A stretch of 59,477 bases of DNA, filler included, from Dimargaris cristalligena (GCA_003614675.1; 7 parts of 7 records of this genome joined end to end with filler, not necessarily neighbours in it), one strand, 5' to 3'. Shown: positions 8,440 through 51,106, counted from the whole stretch's first letter. The notes: generated by a model from the sequence alone, not told the origin. Translations and numbers: made by a program.

Positions 8440-8539
8440 NNNNNNNNNNNNNNNNNNNNNNNNNNNNNNNNNNNNNNNNNNNNTTAATTAATTAANNNNN
8501 NNNNNNNNNNNNNNNNNNNNNNNNNNNNNNNNNNNNNNN
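8440..8539. other. Artificial contig spacer N44-TTAATTAATTAA-N44 (also 16960-17059, 25479-25578, 33993-34092, 42502-42601, 51007-51106)
   Basis: Six identical 100-bp spacers carrying a six-frame stop linker. Confidence 0.99.
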
Positions 8540-15600: not shown

Positions 15601-17059
15601 CTTCTAATTATACAGGCGACGGGTCCTGCTAAATAATTTATATATATATATATATATATATATAATAGGCATTATGGAAAGGATATTCTGCACACCCGCC
15701 CCGACGGAGTTATGCAGCTGATTGATCGACACTGGGCCGTGGTACCATGGAACTTTCTATACAGAAGCCGCGGGAGCTTCCTCCGAGCCCCACCAGACGC
15801 AACTCCGTCCTTGTCATCCACTGATTTGTCCGCCAATCCCGCCGGTCCTTGCGACTCCACCTAATCCACGCCCAGATCCCCCGAGTGCCAAGACCGCGGG
15901 CAGTATAGTCCTACCCCGAGTCGTTTCACACCCACACTTCCCCCCCACCCATGTTCACACTAGCCCTATTCACCATCCCAATTACCTCGCATGACCCGCC
16001 CGCCGCCTAACCAGTCGCTGTTGATGTTAGACTTCCTCAGAGAGAAAAAAAATAGAGAGGAGGGGAGAGGGCGTCAATCGACCAAGGGCCAGGGTATGTC
16101 TCCCCTCCTCTTCCATTTCCTCACCTCTCCTTCTGCTTTCCCCTTTGCCCTGTCCTGCCCTACCCTGGATCCACCACCCCCAATAGAATAGTGTTGGTAT
16201 AGGTTAGTCCCCCCCAGTCAAGCATTATGCCCACATGTCCTACTTAAACCCAGTCGCCCTAGTCCAAACCAATCCCAAGCCGTCTCGGTAGATAACCGCC
16301 GTGGTCGGGTAATAAAAAATCACCCTCATTGTATCTAAGGGGGGGTGGTTTAGAGCAACACCGGCTGGCAACGGTTTATTGAATTGTTCTCCCGGCCAAT
16401 GTTTCACCAAAATTAAATCTACGGTGCGAATTCAATAGATACGCGCATGCATGGTAAGGTGTTTGATCCCCTCGCATGGGTCATTACATGATACGCAGGG
16501 CCGTGTCTCGCAGTCGCCGGCTTACCTCCTGCCGAATGGTCTCAATGATTGCGTGGCAGGGAATGTCGATGGGCTCGCTGAATATAGAAAGAGGGAAGGG
16601 TGTAATCCAACAGGAATGGTTCGGCCATTAATGTCACCCTTGGACCACGCCACCCATATCCATACGTAAACACCAGGTCCAGACTGGGTTCCACATCCCC
16701 CATCTCACTCAATAAGCCACGGGCCCTAAACGAGGCGGAATAGTCATCATTCGGCTTGGAACTTACCTGTCATCGCCGCCCAAGTACAGGGTCTCAATCG
16801 GCAACACCAGCCGTGAAGTACCTAAAATAATTTGACAGCGCCAAACAGCCCAGCTATAAATTGAGTCACATGATTTGGTATCCCTCCCTCTCTCTCTGTC
16901 CATCTTCCACGGCACCCCTTTTGTCACACCTCCTTTCCCCCTACCGAGTACTCGAAGGCNNNNNNNNNNNNNNNNNNNNNNNNNNNNNNNNNNNNNNNNN
17001 NNNTTAATTAATTAANNNNNNNNNNNNNNNNNNNNNNNNNNNNNNNNNNNNNNNNNNNN

Positions 17060-17192
17060 CTCTTTCAAGTATAAATACTCCCCCTTGCTGCCACCTCTTG
17101 GAACAGCAAGTCTATCATCACCTTTCCCTCCTTATTATCTATTTTTTCAAAAAAAAGTTCAGTTTTTAAGGATTTAATTTCAGTTCTTTACA
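17060..17192 (+). mobile_element. LTR fragment (TATAAA ... TTACA) abutting, and probably inserted into, the DIRS pol
   Basis: Homologous to 1-70. TATAAA at ~17070, ends CA at 17192 where the DIRS-like reading frame stops being recognisable. Confidence 0.55.
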
Positions 17193-18842
17193 GTAGTACC
17201 TGAGTATCTGGCAGTTGATTGGACTGGCAAATAGGCCAATGTTAGACAGACTTTACTACTAGTTTATCAGCTGGAATACTTAGTAAAGTAGCTATATTTT
17301 ATGATACACTGGTACCTGCTGACTCAATTGATTAGCCTCAGTGTTGATTATCCCCAGAATATGGGTTGCCATTAGTGTTAGATTCTGTTATACTAATTTA
17401 TTATTGATATTGAGGGCTAGAAATTAGAGGGCTGGGACCTGGGTCCCACCCTAGTGATTGATATATTTTAGGACAGTGGTATTGTCAGTTTTCAATAGCA
17501 CTACCTAATGGTAGACCTACAGGGGTAACTAGATTAAAGCTAAATAGGCTGCCCATAGTTTCTTCCAGTAAATGGACATCAACTATTCCTCTGGGGTCCA
17601 GAGCCCTGCTTGGCATAATCCTGGGGCTACTATTTCATACCCAGTATCCAACATATTAGTATAGATGGTCATGGTAGTTGTATTGGGGAGATGTACTGGC
17701 TTCCCCATATTAAGTTGGGCTTAGTGATACCACTAGTTGAGTTTCTGGATTACTACTGGAGTGAGAGTAATTAATTATTTCCAGGTTTTGTTCTACCTAA
17801 TAAGGCACCATTGTAATTTCCATAAATAGGTTAATCCATTGGGAATAGCCAGTAGGGTTGATGTCAATGTCCCCAGGACTGAGGCCACTTTCCAAGCTAG
17901 TAATAGTTTAATTTTCAAGTACTAGTATACCCACTAAATTAATTTGTATTTCCTTGGAGGTAATATAACCTTCATTTGCTAGGTGTCAATAGTAATACCC
18001 AGAAATTTCATGACCTGGGCTAGAGTGAGGACTGACTTTTTCCAATTAATGGGAAATCCCAGTATTTGGAGATAGTTAAGTACTGTGGCCAGATTAACCT
18101 GGGCCTGTGAGTGAGTAGGCAAAATAATGGCAATGTTATCTAGGTAATAGGGTAGGACAATCCCCTAGGTATATAATAGTTTGATAGCTGCTTTCATAAT
18201 ATATGAAAAAACCTAAGGGGCTATAGTAAGGCCAAATGGTAGTAACTAGTACTGGAAGACCTGGTCCCCCAATTGGATAGATAGGTACCTGTGGGAATCC
18301 ATATAGATAGGTACTGTTAAATAAGCATCCTTGATGTCCACCTTGGTAAGGTAGGTATTCTGGGTCACTATAGAAGTGGATACCACTAAGCCCTCCATTT
18401 TGAAATAGGGGACTATAATAAACTAGTTGATCTACCATAAGTCAACCAATGGGTAGTATTTATTATATTCCTATTTCATAAAAAGGTTAGAATAGTACAC
18501 CCAGTTGTCCACAGTACCTCTCTCCAGTGCTTGGCAAGTGATCAGCTAATTAACTACTGTATACAGTTCTGTTTGGTCCTACTTGGTAATGTGGAAGGGG
18601 TGTGGAATTATAACTAAGGGAGACTGTTGTGTTGCCAACAATTTAAGGGGCTCTGCTGGTTTGCCTTTGGGAGAGTCAGCAGGAGGGGGAACCTCCGGTT
18701 TCTTTCCACTAGATGGGTCACTATATTTTGTCATATAGTGCAGAGGGTTGGACTTTGCTGGGTTTGAGGGGGTCAAGACTGAGGTGGCCTTAGGGAATTC
18801 ACCACTGAGTTCCTGGTTGTCTATTGCATTATATGTTGCCAT
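17193..18842 (-). mobile_element. Degenerate DIRS-type (tyrosine-recombinase class) retrotransposon pol: RT, RNase H, start of MT-like domain
   Basis: Manual minus-strand translation through stops: PLVDLW*IN*FIIVPYFKMEG (~18390-18450), KVDIKDAYLTVPI, LPFGLTIAP*VF, YYLDN (18135-18146; YLDD decayed), GFPINWKKS..QVMKFLG, TNMLDTG (17649; TDAS decayed), KTDNTTVLKYINH*GGT, HILGIINTEANQLS, IGLFASPINCQ (~17210-17240). FKME and DNTT..YIN.QGG are typical of DIRS pol. Confidence 0.85.
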
Positions 18843-20222
18843 CTCACATCATTAGTTATTAAGAAAAATAAAATAAAAACATTATAATCAAATGGTATAA
18901 TTAATTTGGTACTTGGGGATACCAAAACTTTGAACTAAGTAAATAAAAGTAAAATAAGTAGGAATAGTGGCAATAAAATAATTAATAATAATAAAGCTGG
19001 GTAAAAGGTTAATCATCAGTATCATCTGGTGAAGTTAAAACATATATTTATTTGTTAATCTTGAAACTAACTTGTCCCTTCAACTGAGGTGATGCTACTA
19101 AAATATATATGAGAAATTGACCAGACTAGAGAACTATAGCTAAGAGCAAAGCTGTGATAATTGTAGGTCATAAAAAACCTAAAAATAGGGGGAAAATTAA
19201 CCTACTGGCTAAACTATGGTTGTGAATAGGTTAAAAAGAAGTAAAATATAGAAATTGGAAGGTTGGAAGACATAGTCTTCCCAGTCATCCTTCATATTGG
19301 ATATTAACAAAACTAATAAAAGGAATTCATACTTAGAAGTTGTATGGTGTAATTCCAAGAAGAAATCCACATGAGGCTAGTTATTCCCAAGCCCCACTCA
19401 TAAAGGATTGTCAATAGCATAAGAGTAGTGATATGAAGTGGTCAATCATTATAGTTTAAAATCACTATTGATTTCAATGACCTATAACTTCATCAATGAT
19501 AGACAGAAAAGCAAATAGAAGTATGATTTGGAAAGCTAAAGGAAAAAAAATCAGCTAGCATAAAGAAATAAAATAATACTCTCAGCCCCAGACTGTTTCC
19601 ATGGAAATAACTTGTCAATCATCTGGGGACCTTGAATCCATTTAAGGTATGACTACTTCTTGGATTAGTAATGGGTACTGGGGCTTACGTAGCCTCTGCC
19701 CAACTGCCCATGGCAGCACAACTGTCACCACTCAGAGGGAGGAGGTTGATCCTTTCCATAGTACTCCCCATCTGAGTAATAGAGACCTACTGGGCAATAG
19801 TGTGAACTACCAATTCTCCCCACTGGAGGAGGATGTCCCTACCCCAATAGCATAAGAACAATACCTCTTCTCAGAGGACTATTAATACTCTATCAAAGTA
19901 ACTAACTATAGCTCTTTGTCTTCTTTATAAATAATTATTACTTCAATATTGTTTTTTACTTCCAACCTGCCTAATTTGGTATTCCCATTATTTCTTATAG
20001 TTACACAGCCCTACTTGGTCTTTATGGTTACAGAATCTCCTTAGTAGGAGTCAAGTTCTATATTACCCTATACCCCTCTTATACTACCTGGTGGTCCCAT
20101 GAATTATAGGTCAGTATCTTCCAGGATGGGTGAAAGTAGGCCAATCATCTGCCAGGGGCAATCCTATTACTGAGTTGACTATAGTAGTTAGTCATTAGTG
20201 GTAGATAGTGGGACTATGTTAC

Positions 20223-20441
20223 TATTGGAATACTAAAGTTATAAAGAAAATAAAACTGGAAGTAAGTGAAGAAAGCAGCTAGAGGATGGTCAGTACCTCT
20301 AGGTAGTTTTATTGAACTGTAATTTCTGATAGGGTGAAATATAAGTAGCTAAGATAAATGATCTCATAATAGCAGAATAAACTAATATAATTGGATAAAA
20401 CAGGATAAGATAAAGAACATATAGGAAGATATTTTTCAATA
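20223..20441 (-). repeat. 3' LTR of the copia element (~219 bp), decayed PPT at 20442-20450
   Basis: Direct repeat of 25044-25252. Termini TATTGGAA...TTTCAATA look like TGTTGGAA...TTCCAACA after transitions. Purine tract (minus strand AAAGGGAAA) adjacent. Confidence 0.85.
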
Positions 20442-23400
20442 TTTCCCTTTATTATAAGTAGGAATAGTAATAATATCCTGTTTATTAGATGCAAAGAGAT
20501 AGATATTTAAAGGTTTTGTCAAAAAAGCAGCCTTTTGTTTAGTGCTAGGCACATACTTTAAGGCAATAATTCCTTTATCAATATAATCTCAAACCATATG
20601 GAATTTAATATCAATATACTTAGAGTGAATGTGATTCACAGGGTTCTTTGTAATAAGGATACAAGCCATATTATCACTGTAAATAGTGATAGACATAGAA
20701 AAAGAATTAAGAAACTGGAGGGTTTGTTTAATCCAAATTATCTCCTTTGTGGCTTCAGATAGAGCAATATACTCAGCTTCAGCAGTAAAAGTAGCAACTA
20801 GGGTTTACTTCTTAGATACCTAGGATACAGGGCCACCGGCCAGGAGAAATGTGTGGCCACTAATAGATTTGCTATCAAAAGAGTCATTGGCAAAATCACT
20901 ATTACAAAAATTAATTTAATCCAAATTTTTACCATCAAAGGTAATCCCATGTTCTAGGGTACCTTTAAGGTAGCGTAGAATTCTTTTGGCAGTAAGCCAG
21001 TGGGTAGTTGTGGGTTTGGAATTAAAGGAACTTAACTTGTGAACAGCGTAGGTAATATCAGGTCTAGTGCAATTTGATAAATACAACAGGGACCTAATTA
21101 AATTAGCATAAGGTTCATTGGTGAGCTCACAAATGGCAGTGGCAGGTGAGGGTTTGAAGCTAGGCTATATGGAAGTGCTTGTAGGGTTGTACTATTCCAT
21201 GCTGTAGTCCTCCAGTAAGTTAAAAATATATTTCTGCTGGTGGATAAAAAGGGATGATAGCCAACCATTAGTTAACTTGATTTGGGAGACTTGAATTCCA
21301 AGTAGGAAATTTAATTCCCCTTGATTAGTTATTGAGAATCTGGTATTAAGTTGTTGTTTAACCCAATCTACACTAGAAAGCTCAGATGAGATAATAAGAA
21401 TGTCATCAACATACACAGCAAGGTATGTATGTAGGTTTCCTTGAATCTTGGCATAAATACCATGATCAAGTTCACACTTTAAAAAGTTGCAGGACAGCAG
21501 AAACTCATCAAGAGTTTGATTCCAGAGTCTTATAGATTGCTTAAGTCCATACAGGCTGTAGTTAAGCTTGCAGGCAGAGTGTTTGGGTATCTGGGTTCCC
21601 TCAGGAGGTTCAATGAAAACTTCCTTGTCAATTTTATTATTCAAAAATGCAATTTTAACATCTATTTAATAAATAAAAAGGTGGTACTTGGTAGTAAGTA
21701 CCAAGAGAATTCTGATGCTAGAGTAGCAAACTACAAGTGCAAAGGTTTCATTGTAGTCAATCCCTTTACACTGATGGAATCCCTTAACAACTAGCTGAGC
21801 CTTGAGATGCTCAATAGTACCATCAGAGTATAACTTGGTAATAAAAACCCAATGACAGGGTAAAACTTTGGAGTTTTTTAGATGAGGTACTAAGTCCCAG
21901 ACTTCATTTTTAGCCATAGACTTGAGTTCAAGGTTAATGGCTGACTGCTATTCCTTATGGAACTGATTCTTCATGGCCAGGGTGTAAGATTGTGGACCAT
22001 CCACGGCCAGAAAAGCTAAATTAGAAGGAGGGTTGGAGTTGGAAGAGGGAGGAATGCCACAGATACATTTGGATAGTTGAGGAGTCACCAATTGGAGTTA
22101 TTTTAACCTTTTGGAATGATTCCTTTTTAAGGGAATAACCTAGGGGCCAGGGACAGGTGTTCTGTAGTTAAATTAGATAGGCACAAGGACCTGGTGGGAG
22201 ATATTAGATTCCCTAAGTTCAGATTCAAGTTCCCAGTCATTCAGGTCAAGATTTGGGTCTAAAGGGATTCTACTTACAGTGTGTGGGCTTAATTCCATGC
22301 TAAGATCACTTGTATTAATGACCTGGGGTACAGTAGATACCACTGGACAAATTTTAGAACTATATATGGATTAGTTAGAAATATTTATTGTTGCAGGTAC
22401 AGTTACCACTGCAGGAGGTGCATGAGATACATGGTTTGTATGAATAGGCAAATTTAAGCCTGGATCCTCATCAGGGAGGTAAAAGTAGTAACTGGAGGTA
22501 TTCTGGGCTTGATTCTGGATTGTTTTTGACGGGGATGGCTGTTCTGAAGTCCAGGAAGCCAGGGAATCAGGCAAAAAGTGTGTGTCACAACTAAAAATGA
22601 CCTTGTTTGACTGGGGGTTAAAAAAATTGTAGTTTTTTAGGTTGGCAGTCAGCCCCACGTAGAGGAGCTTCTTTAAAGTTGGTTGTAACTTTTGAGAGTG
22701 AGGATTGTTAGTTTTGATAATTACCTTGGACCTAAACTGGTAAAATCATGTAAGATCTGGCTGTTGGCCATACCAGCATAAATAGGGAGTGTCATTACCA
22801 ATTTTAGGACTAGGAATCCTATTCCAAATCATGGTAGTGGCCAGAAGTGCTTCCCCCTAAAGGGATTTAGGTAAACCCTTTTCATTGAGCATGCATTTCA
22901 CAGTAGAGTGAATAGTTTGATTGAACCTTTCAGTAATGCCATTTTGTTGTGGGGAGTAAGGTGCAGTGGTGGAATGAGTAATTCCATGTTCCTTGAGGAT
23001 AGTAGTGAATTGATGGGAGATGTACTCACTACCATTATCAGAATGAATTTCTTTAGGAAATTTCCCAAACCAATTGTTCATATACTTTAAATACCAGTCC
23101 AGTGCCTGGAGTACATCAGATTTGTGTTTGATCAAACTAATATAAGCCATTCTTGAAAACTGGTCAATAAAAGAGACAAAGTAGTATTGTCCTTTCATTG
23201 TTCTGACAGGCATAGGACCAGCTACGTCAGTGTGAATTACCTCCAATATGGAGAACACAGGGACCAGTTTGCCAGAGAATGGTAGGTGAGTTGACATTAA
23301 TTAAACAGGTTTTACAAGGTTGGATATCCTTGGAAGTAGTTAAATCAACACCTGGCAGTAGGCCAGACTTGGCTGCCTGAATCAGGAAGGGATAATTAAT

Positions 23401-25031
23401 GTGGCCTAAGTTAATATGGGCCTGTTGAATTGAATTCTCCTTTGAAATCAGGGCTTTGGGGGTGAAATTTTGTCCAGGATACCTTATTTTGATGGTATAT
23501 GTATGCACATATGAACCTGCATAAAAGGACATCCCATTAGGGAGAGTAATCTCATAAGTATCAGAATTGAAATTGATACTTACACCTTTCTTTATTACTA
23601 CTTTGACTGAAAAAAGGTTGAAACCAAGCTTAGGGCAGAAATTAACATCAAAGAGAGTGAAAATTACAGGTTTGCCAGTGGAGCTGGTAAGAGTAACCTG
23701 GATGTTGCCTTGACCCAGGATAGGTACCGTGCTGTTGTTGGTAATGGTGATGGAGGTCTTAGAGGGTTTGAATTCCTCAAGGAGTTCCAAGTAAGGGCAG
23801 AAATGGCCACTTGCAACCGAATCAATATACCAAGTCTCGGTAGGATTTTCTTTTTGGGCAGAGGCCTTGAGGGCCAGGCCAGTTTGTTGAGGTTCTTGTT
23901 TACAGTGGGGAGGTACAGGGACCTTGGATTCACTAAATTCCATGGCTAACTTTGCAGTTTGGGCCTTACATTCATTGTTGGAATAGGAATTTGAATGGTG
24001 GTAATCACAGTACTTGCCAGAGGGTTTCCCCTTTTTCCCTTTAACCTTTTTAGGGGCCGCAGGTTTGTTGGAACTGGCTACAAGGGCAGAGGAACCAGAC
24101 ACAAGGGGGGTTTGTTCTTGGCATAAATAGTCTCTGTAAAGACTATCCCTGACATTGGAAAACTTCAGATTGGAGATTTCAGTGGAGTTGAAAATTGCAA
24201 TTTGAGTTGCAAACTGGTCCTACCTCATAGAGTTGATAAGGATTAGGGAGCAGATTGTTTCCTTGCCTAGTTTGAGGCTCTCAGTTTCACCGTAGAGTTA
24301 TCATACATTATTGGCCATCTGGATTAGGGTCTCATCATCCTGCTGTAGGTTGAAAAGTTGTTGGTAGAGCTCTAGGGCATGCAAGGCTAAGGGTTAGTTA
24401 AAAGTACTAGCCAGGGTACTCCACATTGCATTTGCAGATGGGCAGGACCTGATAGTTGGAAGCATATTAGCAGTGACAGAGGCTTGAATCTTGAGTTTGG
24501 CCAAGTGGTCTTACTTATGCCAGAACTTGGTGGAATCAAACTTGACCTTCTCATCTTTAGTAGTAATAATGAGAGTCAAAAATGGGTCTTCAACAACTTT
24601 CCAAAGGTCATCTAAGTCAAGGTGACTTTGCATTTGGATGCTCCAATCGTCATAGTTTGTACCAGTAAAGGTAGGAAGAGGGGGGAGATTCATTGTAAAG
24701 AATTCACCAATTGTTAGATGGATGGATAGTTTTTAATAGGTTTTAAAGGGTTTAAAGGGATTCCACTAGTGGTAGGATATATGAAAATACTAAAAACTAG
24801 ATGAATGGATATAGTTAAAGACTTAAAAGTATCTCTAGATAGATAAAAGGGACAAATAGAGTTGATGGATAAAAATAAAGTAAAGTAAAGTAAAGTAAAA
24901 GTTTACACTAGCTATAAAGGCATAAATATGCAATCAATTGGGACTAATGCACTATTCTACAGGGATATGCAAGCAGTTGATGCGCACATGCATGACTTTT
25001 TCAAAGATAAAAGGATAAAAGTGCATAAGCA

Positions 25032-25043
25032 GGGCTCATAACC
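25032..25043 (-). promoter_or_regulatory. Primer-binding site GGTTATGAGCCC (internal tRNA-iMet type used by copia elements)
   Basis: Immediately follows the ...CCAACA end of the 5' LTR on the minus strand. Confidence 0.85.
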
Positions 25044-25252
25044 TGTTGGAATACTAAGGACTTAAAGGAAATAAAACTGGAGGTAAGGGAAGAAAGCAGC
25101 TGTAGGACAATAGGTACCTCTAGGTGGTTAGTTTTATTGAACTGTAATTTCTGTGAGGTAAAATATAAGTGGCTAACATGAATGGTCTCATAATAGCAGA
25201 ATAAACTAATGTAATTGGGTAAATATAGGATAGAATAAAGAACACATAGGAA
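25044..25252 (-). repeat. 5' LTR of the copia element, outer ~12 bp replaced by another sequence
   Basis: Aligns to 20223-20428 up to ATAGGAA, then switches to unrelated sequence beginning TGTCGC at 25254. Confidence 0.85.
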
Positions 25253-25253
25253 C

Positions 25254-25478
25254 TGTCGCCCCTCCTAATCTGTCCTAATCCAACTGACATGACCGCCGTC
25301 ATATCAGGCCGTATAGCGCCATAGTGTACCCCCCGGCCCTAACCAGACCGAACATCATTGATAGCCCCTTAACCGGCCAGGCCCCCAGAGTTCGCACTGA
25401 TCACTCGTAGGTGATCCTAGTGTCTTCCAATTCCCATGGAAGCCCTGCTCAACTGAGGGCCAGCCGGTTCCACCTTAT
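25254..25478 (+). mobile_element. Probable second LTR/repeat inserted into the copia 5' LTR; diverged relative at ~50221-50450
   Basis: Starts TG. Shares CTAATC-N4-CTAATC, TATAGCGCCATA/TATAGTACCATA and TTCGCACTGATCACTC/TTCACACTAATCACTC with 50221-50390. Confidence 0.4.
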
Positions 25479-27526
25479 NNNNNNNNNNNNNNNNNNNNNN
25501 NNNNNNNNNNNNNNNNNNNNNNTTAATTAATTAANNNNNNNNNNNNNNNNNNNNNNNNNNNNNNNNNNNNNNNNNNNNAAGTGGTCCTTGGACGTCTCAA
25601 AGATGCGTGCTTCGTTGTAAAAGTCCGCGCCCGGTTATTTGGTGATAGCTGACGGTGAAGCCGGCATAAGGTCTCACAAGGTGGGGGGTGGGCAGTCGGC
25701 GTAGATATGGGAGAGGCTCATCTAGGCCGTATAACGAAAAAGTCGATGGGTGAGGCCATCACTACCACTGGTTAAAAATGGCTATCCTGCCAAATTTCCC
25801 TTACATCAATCATTCAAAATCCTGTATATTGACCTCAATATTATTGACGCCACTTGACCAGACTGTGATAGACGCTTAACTGACTAAGATATATCCCCAA
25901 GTCTTTCCGGAAGATGAAATACCCGGTAGTTGGCTACGAATACTCTGTGTCAATGAGTGGATATTGCGAGAGGCACCCAATTAGCGCCCATATACTGCAG
26001 TACCCACCACTCCTGCATAAACATATTATGTCCTGGTAAGATAGGCGTTGTTATCATTGGAAAATATTTACATGCGCAATTTACGAAGCAGGAGAAAATA
26101 CGACTACCAATGGATTGCATCTTAACTGCGTTTTGTTCACTATATTATATGTAAATGTAATATAATGAATACCTCAGAATATTGAGTACAGCACCGGATA
26201 TTGTCTTGACACCGCACTTCTTCGATAGGGGGGAATTGATAGAGGATAACACACGGGTACTTCAGACACACCTACTAACTAGTTAAGAGTATACGGACCT
26301 ATTTAAAGTAAATTAGAGGAATATAAGCCAAGGAACCCATTGGTCCCAACAATCTGAAGGAATAGATTTATAGTAGGACAGCACAGTAGGGTTGCCCATG
26401 ATCTCGTAATGGCAGCTTTTGCCAATCGCCACTGGGGTCAGGAAAAGTCTTCAAAGCAATGGTTGAGCAAAGGTGGGGTTCAGTAGTGCTGACCAGGGGA
26501 TGTGATAGGTCACCATGGTACCAAATAATACCTTTGGAAAGGCAACCCGCCATAATAAGGCCCTATATAGGTAACCAGCAAGGATATCCCTTAATCTTAT
26601 TACATCGGATTATCTTGCATGCCATTTACCTATTCGATAATGCTATCTTTATTTTGTATTTACGTAATTAAAATCCCTATTTGAAAAATTTACTGGCATT
26701 GATTCATTATTACCGATTAGCAGCTTTTATTATACATTCATGTTTCTTTTAAATGGTCTCCCCCCCTACTTTGATTGTACTCAATCAAGTATTTAGCCAT
26801 ACCCGTCTACCCCACCGTTGTATACGGCAGTTTTCCAAGGCTAATATGGCGAGTGGTAGCAAATATAAGAGGAATGGTTAGTTCAATCTCCTGCCTAGAT
26901 TAGGTAACGCGAAACCCTCGACACGTCTTTATGAGTGGTTCGTTGCTAAAACGACTAGGAACAATTATTCACATAATAGGTTAACATCTGCTGAGTCCAG
27001 GACTGCTTTCTTATCCTTACACAGGCATCGTCTCAACTGGAATATAAAGGGTATGCACTTGGATAACCCTGCACACCACTGCGCTCTCAATATTACCCTT
27101 CCAGTAATGGTACAACGTTAGGGTTCAGGGTGTATGAATTTATGAATCAGTAGGACAGAGTCTGGGTACTTTCAGTAACAGTAAAAGTGAGTCTATGCCC
27201 AAATACATGAATGAGTGGTGAATAAAAATAAAACTGATCAAGGGGCCATAAAAATAAGGAGTGGTTCAGAAGCCCACCTAATATGAATGGTAAAGTGACG
27301 TAAATTTTGTAAAAAAAATAGATGTGTATTTTAAAGGTTGTGGATGATAACTACAAATGATTCGACGGGGAGAGTTTTCAACAATTGAGGGGCGGTCACA
27401 TCATCACACCTCTGGCTCTTAAATGGGGATAAAGAGCCTCATAGCCGAATATTAATTTTATAGCGTATAAAAATAAAATAAAAAAGGTGCGTGTATCCTT
27501 GACCCTCTCCTCCGTCCACCCGAATT

Positions 27527-33992: not shown

Positions 33993-34092
33993 NNNNNNNN
34001 NNNNNNNNNNNNNNNNNNNNNNNNNNNNNNNNNNNNTTAATTAATTAANNNNNNNNNNNNNNNNNNNNNNNNNNNNNNNNNNNNNNNNNNNN

Positions 34093-37000
34093 TTTCGTTG
34101 GTAATCAGAATGCCGTCCGCAGATAACTCTGTAGGTAGAGTAATACCGGATGTGGGCAGTTCAATGCTACTTGGATCAGTGGATTGGGCTAGAGACCAGA
34201 GGTGGTTAGCCCACGCTGTGTACGAGTGGGTTTTCGGATCAAGAGGCTGTCCAGTTAAGAAGGCCGAAAGGTCATCCTGAATAATTTGGACGGACAAATA
34301 GTCAAAGACCAGGTGGTGCACGGCAATGTAGACGTATTGAACGCCATTTATATCAAAGACCCGAACCTGGGAGATCGGGCCGGTCTCAAAATTAATTTGG
34401 CGATTGATTGTATTGAGTTGGGCCAGTGTGTCGCTAATATCGGGTACTTGGTGGTATTCAAAGCAAGTCGACGATGGGTTATCAATGTCTGCAAAAGTGA
34501 TCATTATTTCCCCATCGGTGGTCAGGAAGCGAGCGCGGAGCATGTCATGGCGCTGGACTACCTTGGTCCAGGCGGCATGCCATTGTTGAGCGGTGAATCG
34601 AGTGCTGGATTCAAACATAGTGGGTAGGGGGAAGAAGTGGGGGTCAGCCAGTTGAAGGGCAAATAACTCCACCTGGGGCGGGGTGAGTCGTATGGCCCCT
34701 GATTTCGAATCAACTGTGTTATGGTTATCATCAGCAAACACTCCAATGCAACCGGACGAGGTCGGAATTAGTTCGGCGAGGTGGGCAATGGTGTTGGATC
34801 GGTTAATATCGATCAGGTTCAGTTGGAGGTTCTGGCGACGACTACGGGATACCAATTGGATAGCCGAAAGGGAGTTACCACCGAGCTGGAAAAAAGTAGC
34901 TGCTGGTGAAATACTACTCGGATCAATTCGAAGGGTTTCGGCAATTATACCAATGAGCCGGGCTTCGCCTGGACTGAGTTGGGCAATCTTCTGGCTATCA
35001 TTGCTAGGTGTAAAATGGTGTCTGGGCAGGGCCTTGCGGTCCACTTTACCCACCCGGGTCAATGGTAATTCAGATAGTTCCACGAGGACAGAAGGCACCA
35101 TGTAGTGGGGAAGCCGGGATCGCAGAGAATCCATGATAGCGGCTACCCGGCCAGAAGGGGGAATAATGTAGCCGATCAAGTGACTCTCATCCTGGACTAC
35201 AACGCAAGCCTGGTCCACGGCGGGGTGGCGTTCCAGGGCGCTCTCTATTTCCCCGAGTTCAATCCGGAACCCCCGCAATTTGACTTGATTATCGATCCGG
35301 CCGAGGCATTCAATTTGACCATTGGGTAACCAGCGGGCCAGGTCTCCCGACTGGTAGATGCGCTCACCGGTAAACGGACTCAAAATAAATTTCTCCTGCG
35401 TCAGTTCAGGGTGATTAAGATAACCACGGGCCACACCACGACCGCCCAAGTAGAGCTGGCCTACAGCTCCAACAGGGACCAGATGCAAATGGGCATCGAG
35501 GATAATACCGGTGGCGTTGGGTAGCGGAGAGCCAATGGGGATTATTGCCTTGTTGGCCTGGAGCCGCGTCCAGTGGGATCCAACCGCCACTTCGGTGGGA
35601 CCGTACCAGTTGATGAGGTCAACCGAGCCGGCCCACTTATTCACTATTCCTTGGTTGGCCGGCTCACCCGTAATTATAACTTGGCGTAGGTTGGGGAAAT
35701 TGGCCGGATCGAAGCCAGAGAGCAGCGAAGGAGTGCAGCAGGCTCGCGTAGCCTGGGCAAGGGCACCTTCGTAATCCCCTTGGTTTACCAGAACGGTGCC
35801 ACCAAAGGACAGCGTGGTCCATATCTCAGATAGAGACGCATCGAAGGTGGGGGTAACAAGGGTAGGGGTAATGGCACCGGGGGCCATATTCGTGACACGG
35901 CCCATGCCCTGCCAGTGGTTGGCCAAAGCGTGGTGTTCGTGCATGACGCCCTTGGGGGTACCGGTCGAACCCGAAGTGTAGATAATTGCAGCCAAATGAG
36001 AAGGATCGATGGCTGGCGATGGGTATGTGTTAGCCTGGCTATCGGCAAGTAGCGTAGCAATGTTAATAGGCATCGTAGGTATAGTTAACCCGAGTGAGTC
36101 TAATGGCAAAAGGTAGGATGGCTTACCCATAACGGCGATCGCTTGCGTGTCTTCCAATATCAACTGGCGCCGTTTAAGAGGATAATCGGGAGCCAAAACT
36201 ACAAACGCACAGCCCGTCCTCCAAATAGCCAGTTGACCCACAATGAGTTCCGGGCAGTTGTCGGCGACTAGGGCCACTATCCGGTCGGACCCGCAGGCTG
36301 TTTTCAGAGCCAGTGAATAGGCCAGCCGATTGGCAGCCATGTCCAGTTGGGTGTAGGTATAGTGTTGGTCACTATATGTGATGGCGGTGAGTTGAGGCTT
36401 ACTCTCACATTGCAGCTTAAAGAGATCATGAGCCAGGGCCCGGGGGGCATTATATGGATTGGTGGCCCAGCCTCCCAACAGCTGTGCGCGTTCAGGTGAA
36501 GTGAGAATCGGGATATCGGTAAGTGAGCTGTTGGTATCTGCTTCAAGTAATGCTCCCAAGACGGTCACGTAGTGGTCGGCAAATGAGTTGACAAACTCAG
36601 GGCTAAAATCCAATGACCGGTAAGTTACTCGGAATTGAACCTGATTATCTTGGGTATGGGCAATAACCACGAGTGGGAAGTCCGCAGGATCCCGGTAGCT
36701 ATCCATTTCCATTTGGAATGGCAGATCCGGATTTGCTGGAGCCTCGGGGTAGTTTTCCAACACCAGAAGAGTATTGAATAATGTACGCTGTTGACCGATG
36801 CCACTCCAGCGATGGATATCCGTTAGCCGACAGTGTTCGAAGCCATATGCCCGAGTGCTTGCCGCGTACACGGTCTGCAGGATATCCTGGACTGATGGAC
36901 CGTTGCCAAGTGCGACCCGACAAGGAATAGTATTGATGCATGCCCCGATAATACTTTCAATGCCTGACAAGGGAACATTTCGGCCCGAAACCACCACCCC

Positions 37001-40000
37001 AAATATGGGGTCAATGGATCCTGTATGGTGGTGAAGTACCGCCGCCATCGTCACTCGCAGCAGGGTCGAAAGAGTAACCTCGTGGCCGCTAATAAATCTA
37101 TTAATTTGGTCAAGAATCTGCGCAGATTTTTGAACGGTTCCGTAAAACGCGTTGTCGCTAGCTCCTAAATTAGATATTAAAGGGCAATGGTGCGCTTCGA
37201 CTAATAGGCTTGGTTCTTCAACCCCAGAGAATTGACCAGCCCAAAATTGCTCGGCTTGGTCACTACTGTGTTCCAAAATATGGTCAACGAAGTCGCGATA
37301 TTGTACTGTCCGGGGTAGGGGGGTCTCAGAATAGTTGCGTTGGACGCTATGAAGCAGCAGTCCGATGGACCAACCGTCTAATAGGGCATGGTGGGCTGAA
37401 ATCATGAATCTATGTATGTTTGGGGCTGTCCGGAAAAGACCAAACCGGATCCAGGGTCGGTCCAATGTGAATGCTGCTGTTCGTTCCTGAAGGAAAAATT
37501 GTTCGCACAAGACATCCAATTGCCCCCCTTCCCAGCTCCAAATATGCCAGTGGGCATTAAATGTCTCGGCCACAATCTGTAGGTTCTTGTCGGCGAGACA
37601 CCCGCTAGCAGTCAGGAAGCGAGTGCGTAGAATGGAGTGGTTACGTGCCGTTTGTTCCCAGGCCCGGTGGAATTGACCGACGTTCAATTGGCCTTTGATA
37701 GTAAATCCCAGTTGGACCATGTAAGCGGCGGGGTCCTGAAGAGTGGCAAACAGCAGGCCCTCCTGAACCGGAAGACAGGGGTAAATATCTTGGATATCGG
37801 CCAATGTCAAGTCCAATGAGGGTAGGTCATCTTGAACCATCTTGTTAAAGTCCGATTCTGTTAATTGGGCCGAGGAAAAATCGCTAGCTGTCATAATAGC
37901 GGGTACAGGAACCGTCTTGCATTCGAGGATGAGCGCTTCGAGAGAGGTAAGCCACTGGTCGACCACTTTTTGGATGGTTCTCAAGTGATGTAATTCATTG
38001 GAGTACATTATACTAAGCACAAGTCCATCATCGATAGTATAATCGCACGCCACACTGAGTGCCCGATTGAAACGCTCATCCCGGTCCAAACCATCGGCCC
38101 AACCCATTTCGATGTGACGAGGGCGCCAAAACGCATCCTGGGCCTCGAGTTGTTCGGATCGACCCGAGTAATTGAACGGAATGCGGTGCCAGTCAGATGA
38201 AGGTGTCCCCGAGGTTTCCGGGACATTTCTATCGACGACAGGGGCTGATAGAGATGGGGTGTTCTTGAGGTAGCGCTGAAGACTATAGGGGAAACCGTGG
38301 TTGGGAATGGAGCGCATGCGCTGTTTGGCTAGAGCCAAGGTGCGCAGGTTATGGCTATTGCCTGGGTAAGCCCGCGTCTGGTTCAGGTCAAATACAGACG
38401 GGTAGATGGAAGTAAACCAGCCTACCGTGCGACTGATATCAATGGCAGAGTCCCAGGTCCGACGGCCATGGCCCTCTAGTTCTAACTCAATTACCGAAAT
38501 TTCTAAAGTCGCTTGTAGAGAGAGAAGGAGAGAGGCTATCAGAAACTCTTGGGGGGAGACACCTACGGCAGGGGCAACTTCGGTAAATAGGGCGTCAGAC
38601 AGAACATGGCCAAGTGATGCACGCTGTACTTCAAACGAGCGATAGGTTGCTGTGGGGGTAGCGGACTGGTTACTCATTGATGCAAATGGGTAATCTAACG
38701 GAATGGGTTCAGCTGGAGTGGATGATATTGGCCCGACAGAATCGGGGAGAGCCTGAGCATAGGCGTGGACCCGAGTAGCCCACTCACGGAACGGCATAGT
38801 CTTAGCGGGCAAGTCCCGGTTTTCAAGGAGGACCTCCAGGTCTTCGAGAATAATCCGCCAGGAAACAAAGTCGACAGCGAAGTGGTGAATAGTCAAGTAA
38901 ACATGCTGCTCGCCGTCCAGGGTTAACAAACCGCAAACCATCGTAGGCCCCTGTTCAATTGAAATGGTTTGTTGCGTTTGTCTGACCCAAGTGGGGTATT
39001 CGTCAAGGGTAAGTGTAGCTTCTTCGATGGACAAGAATTGGTGCAACCAAGAGGCCGTGTCGGAGGGTATGGGTAATACCCGTTGTTGCCATTGATCGTG
39101 GGCAAGTTCAATGCGGATTCGAAGGATATCGTGGTGGGTCATCAGGGCGATTAGGGCCTGGGTAAGAACGGTGGAAGTCAATGTCTGGCGGCACTTGAGG
39201 AGCATGGACTGGTTGAATTGATTAATAAACCGGTATTCCTTCAGGGCAAAGCGCTGCACAGCAGTCCAGGGAATCGGACCAACCGGATCGACATATAGAA
39301 TAGATATCAGGTCTTCGGAATCTATAAATCGGGCACACTGTCCCATGGCCGCTAATTGGGCATGTTTGAGAATATCGGCCACTGAAAGCTGGAGTCCCAG
39401 TCGTTTACAGCGGTTGGAAAACTGAATCGCCGAAATCGAGTCACCCCCAAGTTGGAGAAATGAGGCAAATGGTGTGATTTTTTGGGGATCGACCTTGAGG
39501 GTATCAGCTAAGGCCTCTCGCATGAGCAAGAATATTGGCGATAAGGATTCGACGTCGATGGCTTCGTCTGTGGTGTCTATTGGTAGCGGCCGACCCTGAA
39601 GTGCCTTGCGATCGGACTTGCCCAGGGAAGTTATGGGGATGTAATCCAATGGTACGATAAAATTTGGCACCATATATGGCGGGAGTTTGGTGGCGAGTTG
39701 GGTTTTGAGGGCCATAGTATCAACCGAATTGGGGGCTATATAAAGAACGATTTGCTGTTGGGTGACACAGGCTACCGCATAGGATACGCCCTCAACTGAT
39801 GAGGCGGTGTTTTCGATTTCACCCAGTTCGATACGATAGCCGCGCAATTTCACCTGAAAGTCTTTTCGCGAGATGAACTGGATTTTGCCGCCGGGAAGCC
39901 AGCAAACATGATCCCCGGTTCGGTACAAGGTACCGGAACCAAACGGGTTCCGAATAAACGATGTAGCAGTGATCTCTGGCTGTTTCCAGTAACCAGTACT

Positions 40001-42501
40001 AACTCCAATACCGCCAATACAGAGTTCTCCAGGGACACCGACAGGAACAGGATAAAGCTGATTATTGAGCACGTAGCCCTGGATACCGGCCATAGGGCGG
40101 CCGATGGAGATCGGCTCGCTCGCGTTAATTTGGTTGACGTGGGACGCGATGGTGATTTCAACGGGGCCATAAAAATTTAATAAGCGAACGTGCTTACACC
40201 ATTGGTGGGCCACATGGATTGGAACAGCCTCCCCGCCCGTGATGACGGTTCTCAAATTGGGATAGGTCTCGGGATCAATGGATGCCAGCATAGAAGGTAT
40301 AATTGGACAGGTGTTGACGCGAGACAAACAATCGAGGAAATCACCATCTTGGAGTACCAAAGTACCACCTGAGTGGAAGGCACCGAATATTCCGATTAGG
40401 CACCCATCAAAGGAAATATTCACGGTCTGTAATATGCGGCTATCCGAATCGAATTTACCTGCTTCGCAGCTACTTATAATGAAGTTAACTAATGACTCAT
40501 GTCGTATGGGCACCCCCTTGGGTCGACCGGTGGTACCTGAGGTGAATACAATGTAAACCAAGTCTGAAGGTGCGCGAGTAGTGTCGGGCTGAAATGTATG
40601 AGTGGCAATTATATGGTGATTAATCGTATCGACAAGGCAGCACCGACTTTCTGGATCACTTATACGTTCCTTAAATAGTTCAAAATACTCAGTAGTGGTT
40701 AGCAGCCACGGTTCGTCTAATAAATCAAAAGTGTATAGGAGGCGGTCAACAGCGTTGGACACGTCCATCGGAATGCATACTCCACCGGCCATTAATGTGC
40801 CCAAATAAGATAAGATAAATTCGGCCGACTTGGGAAAGAGTAGGGCGACATGGGCGCCCGGTTTGAATCCGCGCTGTTGAAGGGTCAGGGCGATACAGCA
40901 CGCTCGATGGTACACCTCGGCATAGGTTAGTTGTTGATTCGAGGTTTCAAGGGCAATAGCACCGGGCCGGAAGGGAATGTGTTGAGTAAACAGCTGATAG
41001 ACCAACCATTGTTTTTGAGGGAATTCGCGCAGAGGCCCCTGTGTCCACTTATCAACAAGCTGGGCCTCATCGGTTGGAAGAGTCATAAGCTCATGTAAAC
41101 TTAGGGACGGGTAATTTACCATTGTGGACAAGCAATGGTCGATATACCGAATTAAATAATTTGCGTAGACTTCGTCACAGTGGGCCTGATCGTAAGCCAT
41201 ATGACAATCCAGATTCAACCCATTGTCCACAAAACTAATGGTGAGAGTATATTCAGTAAAATTTTGTCCATTGCGGGGTTCAAAGGTGATATCGGGGTTG
41301 ACGATTTTGGATTTGGAAGGTGGGAAATTGTCGTACGCCATCAGGGAGTTGAAGAGCTTGGTTTCGGGACTGACTTGGCCCCATTTGAAGATATCAAAAA
41401 GACCGCACTGTTCAGACGCCATTAGTTTACCAGACTGGCGGTGCAGACCCGTTACAAAGTCGGTTACGGTCGTCGATAGGTTCAGTGAGACTCGGAAGGG
41501 TAGAGTATTGATACACATGCCCACCATATTTTGAATCCCCGGTACGGGTGCATTGCGACCGGAAGTGAGGACGCCGAAGGAAATATCGTCAGACTCGCCT
41601 AGGTAGCGGGAAAGAGTAAGGGCCCACACACCGCGCAGGAGGGAATTGAGAGTAATACTCTGCTGGCGACAGAATGTATGTAGTTTTGCCAGAGTTGGCG
41701 ACAGCGCAGAGTGATATGTTCCATAATTGCAATCCAGGGATTCGGCGGGGTGAACAGGGAAATGAATGGGTGGGGTGGGGTGGGCATTCTCCAGTGTCCT
41801 TTTCCAGAATTGTTGGAGTGGGAATTGGTCGGAGCTTTGGAGGTGGGAAATGTAACTACTAAACTGGGTGGAAGGGGTAGGCTCCGTACCGTGGTATAGG
41901 TCAACCAGTTGGGTCAACACAATATTCTGAGACCAGGCATCGAGTAGGGCATGGTGGAAGGTCAAGAAACACAAGTGACGGAGATCGCTGGTGGCCGGTG
42001 AGGTGAAGAAGGCCATCCGCAATAGGGGCTCGTCAAATGTAAAGCCCCGTTGACGGTCGGTTTTAAAGTAGATTGTTTCCAATGTGGACTAGTCGTCGAC
42101 TATATCCGTATGGACTGACCATTCAATGTCGCACCGTTTAGTGATGACCTGGAGGAAGGAGTGACTTGATAGAGATTCAGGCCGGAAGAATTTCGTTCGC
42201 AAGATATCGTGTTGCTCAGCCAACTGGTGCCAGGCTTTCTGGAGGCGATCCAAGTCTAGGTCCCCAGAAATGGTAAAGGACTGCTGCACCATATACGAGC
42301 TTGGGTCTTTAAGAGTATTCACGAGGAAGCCCAATTGAAGTCCAGAAGTCGATAGAATATCGGTGATTTCATCCAAGTCTATATTTAATTGGGAGGTGGC
42401 CTCTTGTAGGAGAGATTCCACCATTGAGGAAGTGTAGTGCCATCCGGAGGTCGGCACTTAACCCCGGACTGTGGATGGCTAGTCCTCATCACCAGAGGGC
42501 G
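34093..42501 (-). pseudogene. Intronless multimodular NRPS fragment C-A-T-E-C-A-T-E (3' truncated), with in-frame TAG at 42091-42089
   Basis: C1 HHALLDAWS (~41950), A1 FTSGTTGRPKG/YRTGD, T1 GGDSIS (~39440), E1 HHFAVDFVSW/EGHGR/RTVGWFT, C2 HHALLDGWS (~37385), A2 YTSGSTGTPKG, T2 GGNSLS (~34875), E2 HHLVFDYLS (~34310). ORF 42089-42457 (C-domain start, LQLGFL..DPSSYMVQ) is in frame with ORF 34037-42082 across one TAG. NRPS identity is near certain; pseudogene status is less so. Confidence 0.8.
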
Positions 42502-44135
42502 NNNNNNNNNNNNNNNNNNNNNNNNNNNNNNNNNNNNNNNNNNNNTTAATTAATTAANNNNNNNNNNNNNNNNNNNNNNNNNNNNNNNNNNNNNNNNNNN
42601 NACTAACCAGTTCGCCTGGAGAAGCCACCCTGCCCTTTTTGATATATTTTGTTGTTCATTTTAGTGGCTTGACACCACCACTCTGTGACACCAGTATAGC
42701 CTATTCCCATATGTTGAATAATGTGGATGCCTCTGGCCTTGTATAGTAGTAATGGGGAGTGTCCAAATACTAGGGTGGTATTCACGATAACCCAAAATAG
42801 AAAACCAATAGAGTAGTCTGCTTGTTGGTAAAGGCCACACTGCTTTCCAATTGGCTTGTTGGGTGGTTACAAAGGGAAATACAGAAGGGCACTACAAACC
42901 CCTATGGTTGCCAAGGCTAACGGTGGGGGGTCGAGGCACTTTTGTCCCTTTTTTGCAGGCCTCAACCACTACTGGAAAAGAGCAAAAGGGAGAATACATA
43001 AGGAAGCTACTGGGCGACTGTACTAAAATGGCCATTGTGAATTCGTTTTAAAAACTCATTATGTTAATAGAGGGGAAAGAAAAATTTTTCCGTAAAAATA
43101 TTCCTTTCCCCGAAGCAGAAAGGAAAAATTTTCTTGTGAAAATTTGTTTCTATATCTTTCTCCTTCTTTTATTCCTTCCTACCAGCCGACCCTAGTGGTT
43201 TATTCTATTTTTCCAGTCAAAATTTAATCTGTGCCATGTTCTTTTCACATGGGCGTGACGACTTTTCAGTTATTGCAGACCGTGGACTTGTCCATTCAGT
43301 GTAATAAGTAACGCTAATAAAATAACAAACGTCGACGGCATCTATTAACAATAATTCACCGTCAGCGGTTGGTTACTTTCGGCCAGCCTAAAATAGCCAA
43401 AGGCAAAGACGATAGACAAAGGCTGACCACCATACGCAGTTGGTTTATTGACTGTTCTCTTGCGGCCCAAACCCTTTGTTCATTCATTTTTATGTAGTTT
43501 GGGTTCAACGAGGGTGAAGACCATGGGGGACTTCACGCAGTGGTTATTCCTCGAATGTTGGCTCCACAGTCAATCGGGGTACTAGGTTGAAAGGGCAACG
43601 AGGGGATGATTCACCACGCAGCGTTATACAAAGTGTATCCATAGAGATGTTTAGCCACAGCTTGGCCATCTCTGTGGTATTTGATTTTCGCAAGTACGTT
43701 TGTTTAGGGGGGGGACTCGGGGACTCGGCCCAATGGCCTGGTCCGAAAATATCCCCCGTCCTATGTTGGTGGAACGATCCCTTTATATCTATTGCAAGAT
43801 ACATGTAGGTGCTGTATATCCGTATTCAGGATTATTGAATGGCGAGTTTTAATCGAATCCAGCCTCCGCCTTTCCCGACCAGCTCAGGTGCTCCCCCCCT
43901 CGCCTGTCCATGTCTCGTTAACGTCCGTCCCCAATATATAAGCTGGCTATCCCCCCTTCATATTCATCCCATCACACTTACTCTTAGCCTAATTAACTCT
44001 AGCCGGTATTCGATTTCCATTTTCTTCATTTTGCGTTGCCCTGCTGAATTTGGTTACGAATATTATCCCCCTTGTGGCCAGCTCAATTTTTCTGACATAC
44101 TTCCCGCGCGCCTCACGAATTTCTCTCGGTTGACG

Positions 44136-49244: not shown

Positions 49245-50770
49245 GCAATGCCTGTTGACACAGTAGGCCTCCGTGGTTTAACGACCAACCAAACTGTTTT
49301 TATTGTGCACATGACGCTGAACGCGTATGCCCTGCCATATATAGGATATGGGTAAAATTCTACCCAACCGGATAATATATTAGGAGATATAGAGACGAAT
49401 GGATGGACAGGTAAGCGTAATCTCTATTTTTACTCAGAATTATCAGCCTCGTTAATCGGATATTTCAGTATATAACCCGATTGAACATTTTCCATCTATA
49501 ATACAATGATCCTGTACCACGAGGTCTCAGTTATCCTACATTGTCTATTATTGGTAAGATTGAGAAATGCCTGTGAGTTTACTACCAATCAAGCAGCGAG
49601 TACTAGTACTGTCCTTTGCCCCGCACCATCTTCATGTGAGTGATGAATTAATGATACATTAAATATGTTATCCTAAAGTGCCACCTTAATACCATTGCCT
49701 GGGCGGAGCAAAAAAAAACTAAGCTAAGCAAAAATAAAAGACAAACACCCAGGCCTGTGCTGTACTATACTCAATACCCACTGTGATGTTATACAGCTAT
49801 TTGGGGTATGTGATTTGAAAGGAAGACATATATCACCTATGTCATGCTGTGAGACAATCGCTGATCTGTCTTTATTAGTGTGCTATTGGTTCAACCTTGT
49901 GGTTATCATAACAAAATCAACAATTATCAATTATTTCAAATGATATAACAATTCTTAGTATTTCCATGCCTTCAGGCAATCTATGCTCCAATTATTATTT
50001 TTTACAAATATCTTGATGACTATGTGCTTAGATGACTCTATGATGTTTGTTAGAAATATAGAATGTATTTTCATATTTTTATGCTATTATTTTATGGACA
50101 TGGTTTGGGGAACTCTCTCCCAAATAGATAGCAGAGCTTTATTCTTTATTTCATAATACTTTTACAATTTTACTGAAATACTTTATTAATTCTACTCCTA
50201 ATTTATTGACATTGGACTATCTAATCCACCCTAATCTAGTTGGCTTAGATGTCTAACTATATTATACCTTATAGTACCATATTAGCTTTCCTATAGTCAC
50301 CCCTGGTACCATAGGATCATCCCTTATTATATAACTGTTCCCCTTCCAGACTCCATCTCTTCACACTAATCACTCAGTATGCTGATCTGAAGACTCTTCT
50401 GGTTACCATCAGAGTCTTCCAGGTACTAGTAACTATCTGGTTAGCCTATTTATCTATCCCTTCATCTTAGAAGTATCCTTCCCTCAGGACCTCCCACTAA
50501 AGTTATCCCTATATATATATAACTAGGCCCCATTGGACTAGTTAAATTCCTTAGCTTATTCTCACCCTTAGTTTATCCCTAATAAACTATATATATACCC
50601 ATTCCCCCATACTGCTTAATATATATGCCTACTATATATCCCTTGCATATACCTGCCACATAGCCTTTATTAGTTAGTACCATGCCCTATACCTAAAGCT
50701 AGTAGCCCACTTAGCTAAGTCTAAGTCCTGCTTACTATTAGAAGCCTATGCTTGGGATTCTTGATAGACT

Positions 50771-51006: not shown

Positions 51007-51106
51007 NNNNNNNNNNNNNNNNNNNNNNNNNNNNNNNNNNNNNNNNNNNNTTAATTAATTAANNNNNNNNNNNNNNNNNNNNNNNNNNNNNNNNNNNNNN
51101 NNNNNN

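Follow-up and report, generated by a model that had tools for sequence, protein, structure and literature searches.

CpG-stripped retrotransposons decaying by C-to-T change in the early-diverging fungus Dimargaris cristalligena: most likely the decay of methylated repeats

We analysed a 59,477-base window of genome sequence from Dimargaris cristalligena, a mycoparasitic, early-diverging fungus of the Zoopagomycota (Kickxellomycotina), focusing on positions 17060-25252, which hold degenerate retroelement DNA made up of a minus-strand Ty1/copia element and nested fragments that include a gypsy-type reverse transcriptase (RT). The first-pass annotation had proposed that this DNA carries transition hypermutation resembling repeat-induced point mutation (RIP), confined to transposons, in a window whose host genes are CpG-rich. 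The window is not one stretch of chromosome, as it consists of seven contigs joined end to end (8439, 8420, 8419, 8414, 8409, 8405, and 8371 bases, in falling order) and separated by six identical linkers (44 N + TTAATTAATTAA + 44 N) at 8440-8539, 16960-17059, 25479-25578, 33993-34092, 42502-42601, and 51007-51106, the second of which marks the left end of the retroelement contig. Because these contigs are unrelated and joined only by linkers, inference about neighbourhood across linkers is invalid. The stretch in question corresponds to nearly the whole third contig (17060-25478; about 8.4 kb), and TUF1, RPA135, a nonribosomal peptide synthetase (NRPS), and other host genes sit on other contigs. 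The supposition that the host diverged early among fungi was borne out by the RPA135 reading frame, which is 99% identical to a D. cristalligena protein (next best, from other Dimargaritales, 59-65%), and by the TUF1 gene (1731-2933, first contig), whose protein, read from 1731-2930, clusters with the named D. cristalligena elongation factor Tu.

Pfam searches of the retroelement contig revealed minus-strand matches to DUF4219, Pol_BBD, gag_pre-integrs, rve, and RVT_2, together with an RVT_1 fragment, and the domains and a pair of long terminal repeats (LTRs) follow the Ty1/copia order of gag, protease, integrase, RT, and RNase H between LTRs. Read in the direction of the element, it runs from the 5' LTR (25043-25252), at whose outer edge CpG depletion stops, through the Gag N-terminal domain (DUF4219, 24589-24669, E = 1.5e-9), the Pol beta-barrel of the protease region with the GAG-pre-integrase domain (23299-23832), the integrase core (rve, 22950-23243, E = 2.6e-20), and an RT with one internal TAA (RVT_2, 21198-21908, E = 3.3e-35 and 9.7e-16), to a stop-broken RNase H and C-terminal Pol region recognised in translation (20589-21164; tblastn matches span 20478-22019) and the 3' LTR (20222-20427; 84% identical to the 5' LTR), directly upstream of which lies a purine-rich tract. 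Copia homologues align across 20478-24687 (tblastn), and a tblastn search of the window with 5 of them matched this single element and no other copy. The numerous TAG and TAA stops reported earlier are present, with 19 in-frame stops in the two copia frames (9 TAA, 7 TAG, and 3 TGA) and a single frameshift (around 23227-23300), such that decay has proceeded by point mutation. The Pol frame, with X in place of each stop, was searched against 5.8 billion protein clusters and returned 197 matches at E <= 1e-20, the best of them 41-43% identical, and the best named relatives were from plants and oomycetes, not fungi. None of these was a close, intact copy that could stand in for the ancestor, and the comparison therefore used columns with deep conservation only. 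Over 207 aligned positions the two LTRs differ by 22 transitions and 8 transversions (30 differences, 14.5%), with 6 gap columns, and a divergence of this size that includes transversions marks the copia insertion as old.

To the left of the copia element, 17060-20221 (minus strand) is nested degenerate repeat DNA containing the gypsy-type RT fragment (RVT_1, 17988-18152, E = 5.4e-7) and an RNase H remnant at 17649-17660, and the contig ends in a very abundant, AT-rich, CpG-free repeat (17060-17340; summed depth 123,000-261,000, versus about 600-2,000 over the copia body). To the right, a GC-rich flank of very high copy number (25253-25478) is physically joined to the element. Rfam (E <= 0.01) and tRNA scans of the retroelement contig and its GC-rich flank gave no match. 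We also observed joints in the contigs of two or three sequencing runs, at 20290/25122, 17196/18001, and 18604/20033. The first, in which 10 other letters separate the joined points, resembles an LTR-to-LTR form; the remaining two suggest copies without inserts of 804 and 1428 bases, and so nested insertions in the window copy.

CpG loss in this DNA is nearly complete, as the first-pass annotation had stated. Only 16 CpGs remain in 17060-25252, with 2 in 17060-20221 (observed/expected, o/e, 0.02) and 14 in 20222-25252 (o/e 0.08), and the whole retroelement contig has a CpG o/e of 0.09 versus 0.73-0.93 for the six other contigs. The host genes lie on these separate, linker-joined contigs, and their reported proximity to the retroelement DNA did not hold. 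In AT-rich non-coding DNA of the gene contigs, CpG o/e runs at about 0.5-1.3. In the repeats, depletion extends to every NCG trinucleotide (o/e for ACG 0.07, CCG 0.10, GCG 0.05, and TCG 0.02). Some sister copies have kept a G at places that are CpA in the window, 17988 and 20923 among them, which argues that the family was not CpG-free by origin.

Two CpG edges are real and do not coincide with linkers. At 25252/25253 the depleted copia element meets the 226-base flank, which retains 11 CpGs (o/e 0.67; GC 0.56) at a summed depth of 51,000-159,000, versus about 1,000-2,000 for the copia (a factor of about 50-100); at 25347 and 25399 each run contributes 22-38 contigs. A piece of this flank, with 15 differences in 195 bases, was also seen in a run labelled as another organism. 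The second edge lies near 420 on the TUF1 contig, where a CpG-free repeat fragment (1-420; 0 CpG, GC 27%) gives way to an o/e of 0.62 in 421-1586. Positions 17122-17199 (78 nt) of the retroelement contig match the start of the TUF1 contig (1-77) at 87% identity (E = 4e-20), and this AT-rich repeat (17060-17340 and 1-77) probably marks an assembly break. A gene-bearing contig holds two further CpG-poor, AT-rich patches, at 42602-43101 (o/e 0.31) and 49500-50700 (o/e 0.14, GC 0.35); neither contains a recognisable open reading frame (ORF), with no long ORF or domain in 49500-50700, and both are probably further decayed repeats.

We next consider the direction of change, for which the two copia frames (stops as X) were aligned with 60 of 120 listed homologues (the first 60 of 1150-1500 amino acids). 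Columns in which at least 80% of the 60 homologues agree were taken as conserved, giving 183 columns of which 45 differ in the window; leaving out 13 multi-step changes, 3 ambiguous ones, and 1 column in an out-of-frame overlap left 28 single-step changes. These comprised 24 G:C>A:T changes, 1 A:T>G:C change, and 3 transversions, in agreement with the earlier claim of decay by C>T and G>A, and per nonsynonymous opportunity the counts were 24/177, 1/145, and 3/804. Both strands were affected alike (C>T 9/65 and G>A 15/112 on the sense strand). The decayed motifs that the first-pass annotation had quoted (YLDN, SDNGSEY, FALVVC, and KAQLVVKG) are all present in the translation, as are the RNase H 12-mer at 17649-17660 on the minus strand and a TA terminus in one LTR where the other has TG (plus-strand letters). 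As a control, the functional host gene RPA135, treated by the same pipeline with 40 homologues, gave 14 G:C>A:T changes, 3 A:T>G:C changes, and 28 transversions. The retroelement thus differs from the control in its share of G:C>A:T changes (24/28 vs 14/45, p = 8e-6) and in its transition to transversion ratio (Ts:Tv 25:3 vs 17:28, p = 1e-5), whereas the ratio of G:C>A:T to A:T>G:C changes is not significantly different (24:1 vs 14:3, p = 0.29).

Other copies of these families revealed a similar spectrum. Contigs of three runs placed at 80% likeness or more (1861, 1988, and 2582 pieces) gave family-wide Ts:Tv ratios of 967:194, 1164:240, and 1184:242, or about 5. Among the best-supported 40 of 1879 differing places, a sample in which changes found in the window copy alone are over-represented, 29 have A/T in the window and G/C in other copies, 7 are the reverse, and 4 are transversions. 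Taken together, these data show a C>T-dominated decay that affects both strands of duplex DNA, continues after integration, and is family-wide.

Decay at CpG alone is insufficient to produce this pattern, as the first-pass annotation had argued, since 17 of the 24 G:C>A:T hits are non-CpG by present-day context. For at least 11 of the 24 codon hits a non-CpG context is certain, the amino acid leaving no choice of neighbouring base (TGG>TAG three times, CAY>TAY twice, CAA>TAA, and CpT or CpC cases), and all three mutated conserved Trp codons became TAG and none TGA. By context, the conserved codons were hit at 7/15 CpG, 12/67 CpA, 4/40 CpT, and 1/55 CpC sites, and the LTR pair (G/C taken as ancestral) at 2/2 CpG, 9/20 CpA, 3/28 CpT, and 6/20 CpC sites, while the 29 window-private changes fell at CpA in 13 cases, CpT in 8, CpC in 5, and CpG in 3 (expected 8.8, 9.5, and 7.7 for CpA, CpT, and CpC). 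Combining these three partly independent samples, the preference for CpA over CpT and CpC has a p of about 0.0025. Non-CpG hits are therefore real and mildly favour CpA, in the order CpG >> CpA > CpT, CpC. The more specific claim of double hits from CG to TA fared less well, none being seen at Arg codons whose ancestral CG is certain. None of 17 conserved Arg columns reads TAN, with 7 still Arg (6 AGR and 1 CGC), 4 CAN, and 2 TGN; a single two-step path does stand at the RNase H remnant, where most other copies have C at 17654 and G at 17658 and the window has T and A, such that the window copy took second hits at CpA and TpG after an earlier shared change.

With modest confidence, we regard deamination of 5-methylcytosine (5mC) in repeats as the best explanation for these CpG-stripped, dead retrotransposons. 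The contig would then be a nest of old, dead LTR retrotransposons from multi-copy D. cristalligena families, whose host most likely marks repeats with 5mC; deamination of the methylated cytosines would have turned nearly every CpG into TpG or CpA, and cytosines followed by other bases would have deaminated more slowly, CpA ahead of CpT and CpC. That order would be the expected output of non-CG methylation of the DNMT1/DIM-2 type. The observations that this reading draws upon are direct ones, namely near-total, repeat-limited CpG loss with sharp edges, G:C>A:T changes on both strands, many diverged copies, and an old insertion, the age of which (from LTR divergence) means that slow, passive decay had time to act. 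CpA/TpG is slightly above expectation (o/e 1.08 in the repeats vs 0.93-1.10 elsewhere), a direction in keeping with lost CpGs as its source, and the trinucleotides CTG/CAG (o/e 1.49) and CCA/TGG (1.85) are raised; later decay of TpG/CpA to TpA would hide an excess. Linderina pennispora, a relative in the same subphylum, is reported to carry 5mC in its repeats and hardly anywhere else (PMC11258239, citing Mondo et al. 2017). We infer methylation as the cause and the kind of enzyme acting, as well as how far the non-CpG component is passive or enzyme-driven; this component could come from non-CG methylation or could be driven by an enzyme, as in RIP or a Dim2-dependent mutator.

Several points weigh against deamination of methylated repeats. 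The CpA preference is significant in the codons (CpA 12/67 vs CpT+CpC 5/95, p = 0.017, and similar at looser conservation thresholds) and in the LTR pair (CpA 9/20 vs CpT+CpC 9/48, p = 0.036), and methylation that purely maintains CG sites does not predict non-CpG hits with such a preference. The surviving CpGs are also unevenly placed, with 6 of the 16 in repeats lying in CGTAG/CTACG versus 58 of 2653 elsewhere in the window (p = 7e-7, post hoc), an enrichment for which methylation and deamination do not account. CpGs in this context include those at 19688, 20974, 21047, 22658, 24291, and 23225, and the context could be a protected or a re-created one. In the literature, early-diverging fungi as a whole are described as having little or almost undetectable 5mC (PMC13297926, a review, and the discussion in PMC11258239), and for methylated transposable elements (TEs) of Zymoseptoria tritici simple deamination was rejected as the account of CpA>TpA changes (PMC8016269).

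In a second reading, which we consider possible but unlikely, a RIP-like or Dim2-like enzyme outside the Dikarya would seek out repeats or heterochromatin and actively mutate C to T in double-stranded DNA, with a preference for CpG and CpA. Consistent with such a mutator are the excess of G:C>A:T changes over the host-gene control, the equal exposure of both strands, the CpA preference in all three samples, the exclusive TGG>TAG outcome at mutated Trp codons, and the predominance of stops over frameshifts in copia. A mitotic CpA>TpA mutator that depends on a DNMT is known from an ascomycete (PMC8016269), and RIP-index signals have been reported in Zoophthora, which is also in the Zoopagomycota (PMC11105155). 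Were this reading true, the CGTAG context of surviving CpGs would hint at a sequence rule of the enzyme.

The dinucleotide composition argues against such a mutator. RIP-affected DNA is typically recognised by a TpA/ApT ratio above about 0.89 and a (CpA+TpG)/(ApC+GpT) ratio below about 1.03, seen in repeats and absent from control DNA. In the retroelement contig the latter is 1.18, and the claimed richness in TpA was not upheld, as TpA o/e is 1.01 and TpA/ApT 1.09, and AT-rich non-coding windows elsewhere are as high or higher; the copia coding part has a TpA o/e of 0.70-0.95, a coding-type TpA shortage. CpA/TpG is not depleted. The GC content of the TE DNA (0.38) is not below that of AT-rich intergenic stretches (0.37-0.45). 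Heavily RIPped DNA has a Ts:Tv far above about 5, which we counted against a mutator, and the comparison of 24:1 with 14:3 in the control gene, being not significantly different, points the same way. The composite RIP index (described in PMC11105155), for which values above 0 are taken as RIP-like, is -0.09 and negative across the copia windows; the classical RIP index signature is absent, and AT-rich non-repeat windows score equally or higher. The flank at 25253-25478, of which 226 bp are visible, is of very high copy number and yet retains its CpGs, a poor fit to a purely repeat-sensing mutator, and in a k-mer screen across the fungal kingdom only ascomycetes showed RIP-like signatures (PMC12543289). 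The specific proposal that D. cristalligena itself runs a C>T mutator, RIP- or Dim2-like, on duplex repeats or heterochromatin with the order CpG >> CpA > CpT, CpC is in our view slightly more doubtful still.

A third reading is ordinary neutral ageing, in which old elements simply record a genome-wide, AT-biased, transition-rich spectrum without any targeting of repeats. The LTR divergence with its transversions, a GC content like that of AT-rich intergenic DNA, and a bias against A:T>G:C changes that is no stronger than in the control gene would all be compatible with it. However, CpGs persist in the AT-rich unique-sequence DNA of the window, which excludes neutral ageing for the CpG part; the loss is specific to repeats and stops at their edges, and the Ts:Tv of the TE is far from that of the control. 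We therefore regard ageing without repeat targeting as improbable.

More improbable again is a foreign origin, by which the contig would come from a co-cultured host fungus, or from recent horizontal transfer, and would carry the composition of another genome. Sequence of the host fungus is to be expected in Dimargaritales assemblies made by co-culture (PMC9866270), the retroelement contig holds no host gene, and the closest Pol relatives are distant, at 41-43% identity, and for the most part either unnamed or from outside the fungi. A few short identical pieces occur, at a depth of 3-14, in a run assigned to a different organism (share 0.10); from these we drew no inference. Against this origin, the stretch at 17122-17199 matches the start of the TUF1 contig, a start that is itself CpG-free; five runs that come from two studies and share an organism label contain 57-89% of the contig's sampled words, and a run of the second study has pieces with 0-1 differences. 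Directional decay, at conserved codons and relative to sister copies, also indicates mutation in place and not a native composition, and a host from the Mucorales would in any case still be an early-diverging fungus. Judging from these matches, the contig is very probably Dimargaris DNA, with a small residual doubt.

A further candidate, an APOBEC-like cytidine deaminase that edits retrotransposon cDNA as it is reverse transcribed, would fit the transition-dominated decay and the many TGG>TAG-type stops but is very improbable and was rejected, because the changes are strand-symmetric (in the codons, and with window-private copia changes running 8 one way and 6 the other among the best-supported 40 of 1879 places) and because the same kinds of change separate the two LTRs of one insertion and so arose after integration.

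Overall, the observation is real and statistically solid. The proposal of RIP-like hypermutation stands as to repeat CpG loss, C>T dominance, and non-CpG hits, and does not stand as to adjacency to host genes and TpA richness. A new RIP-like defence is not yet demonstrated; the pattern resembles the decay that methylated repeats usually undergo, and an ordinary explanation of this kind, in an unstudied lineage, is most likely. With 90-98% of the CpGs predicted from composition lost from these TEs, cytosine-directed decay of repeats has acted in the Dimargaritales lineage, in contrast to the usual description of Zoopagomycota as 5mC-poor. If methylation is the cause, this would be one more lineage with repeat-restricted 5mC and would help to reconstruct DNMT evolution in early fungi. 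If the CpA-biased part is instead enzyme-driven, the origin of RIP-type genome defence would move much deeper in the fungal tree.

Elsewhere in the window, an NRPS-like open frame of 2683 aa (34037-42088, minus strand) has repeated adenylation, condensation, and carrier-like segments, is intronless, and occupies an entire contig, open at both ends. It fits the reported richness of D. cristalligena in secondary-metabolite genes (PMC9866270). The linkers generate false ORF ends that read ...LIN.

The phenomenon has precedents near this lineage, such that to call it undescribed, as was done earlier, is too strong. Besides the repeat-confined 5mC of Linderina (PMC11258239), RIP-index signals have been proposed for Zoopagomycota in a 2024 paper that describes RIP as observed only in Dikarya and gives the composite-index signals of Zoophthora radicans with explicit caveats (PMC11105155). 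The kingdom-wide screen that assigned RIP-like signatures to ascomycetes alone dates from 2025 and covered only scaffolds over 50 kb (PMC12543289), and the review describing near-undetectable 5mC in early-diverging fungi is from 2026 (PMC13297926). Our literature search on Dimargaris and Zoopagomycota methylation, DNMT1, TEs, and RIP, which did not extend to supplementary tables, found no study of D. cristalligena repeats and no Dimargaritales methylome.

Among the closest known systems is the CpG decay of TEs linked to methylation, with CG methylation of repeats by DNMT1/DNMT5-type enzymes being described in Basidiomycota and Phycomyces (PMC13297926, PMC11258239). D. cristalligena resembles it in repeat-only CpG loss with sharp edges and normal CpG in genes and unique non-coding DNA, in perhaps slightly raised TpG/CpA, and in the involvement of both strands of old, multi-copy elements, but differs in its clear non-CpG C>T component with CpA preference, and methylation in D. 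cristalligena is a supposition of ours. In the Pucciniomycotina (Microbotryum and rusts), CpG/TCG-context hypermutation of TEs reportedly occurs, work said to be that of Hood et al. 2005; it shares with D. cristalligena TE-specific transitions centred on CpG, but D. cristalligena lacks a strong TCG restriction. TCG-specific hypermutation was accordingly rejected as a candidate, all four NCG contexts being depleted. Classical RIP, as in Neurospora and other Pezizomycotina, is RID-dependent and premeiotic and converts CpA to TpA. It is like the present case in C>T and G>A changes on both strands of repeats, in many TAG and TAA stops, and in favouring CpA over CpT and CpC among non-CpG sites; unlike it, D. 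cristalligena has CpG as its main target, indices that fall short of the RIP signature, no TpA excess, and a non-ascomycete host. Finally, the Dim2-dependent mitotic mutator of Z. tritici acts C>T at CpA in TEs and does not mutate CpG at high rates (PMC8016269). The likeness here lies in repeat-confined C>T change with a CpA preference, which in Z. tritici concerns methylated repeats and needs no sexual cycle, and the difference lies in CpG, which is nearly eliminated in the repeats of D. cristalligena.

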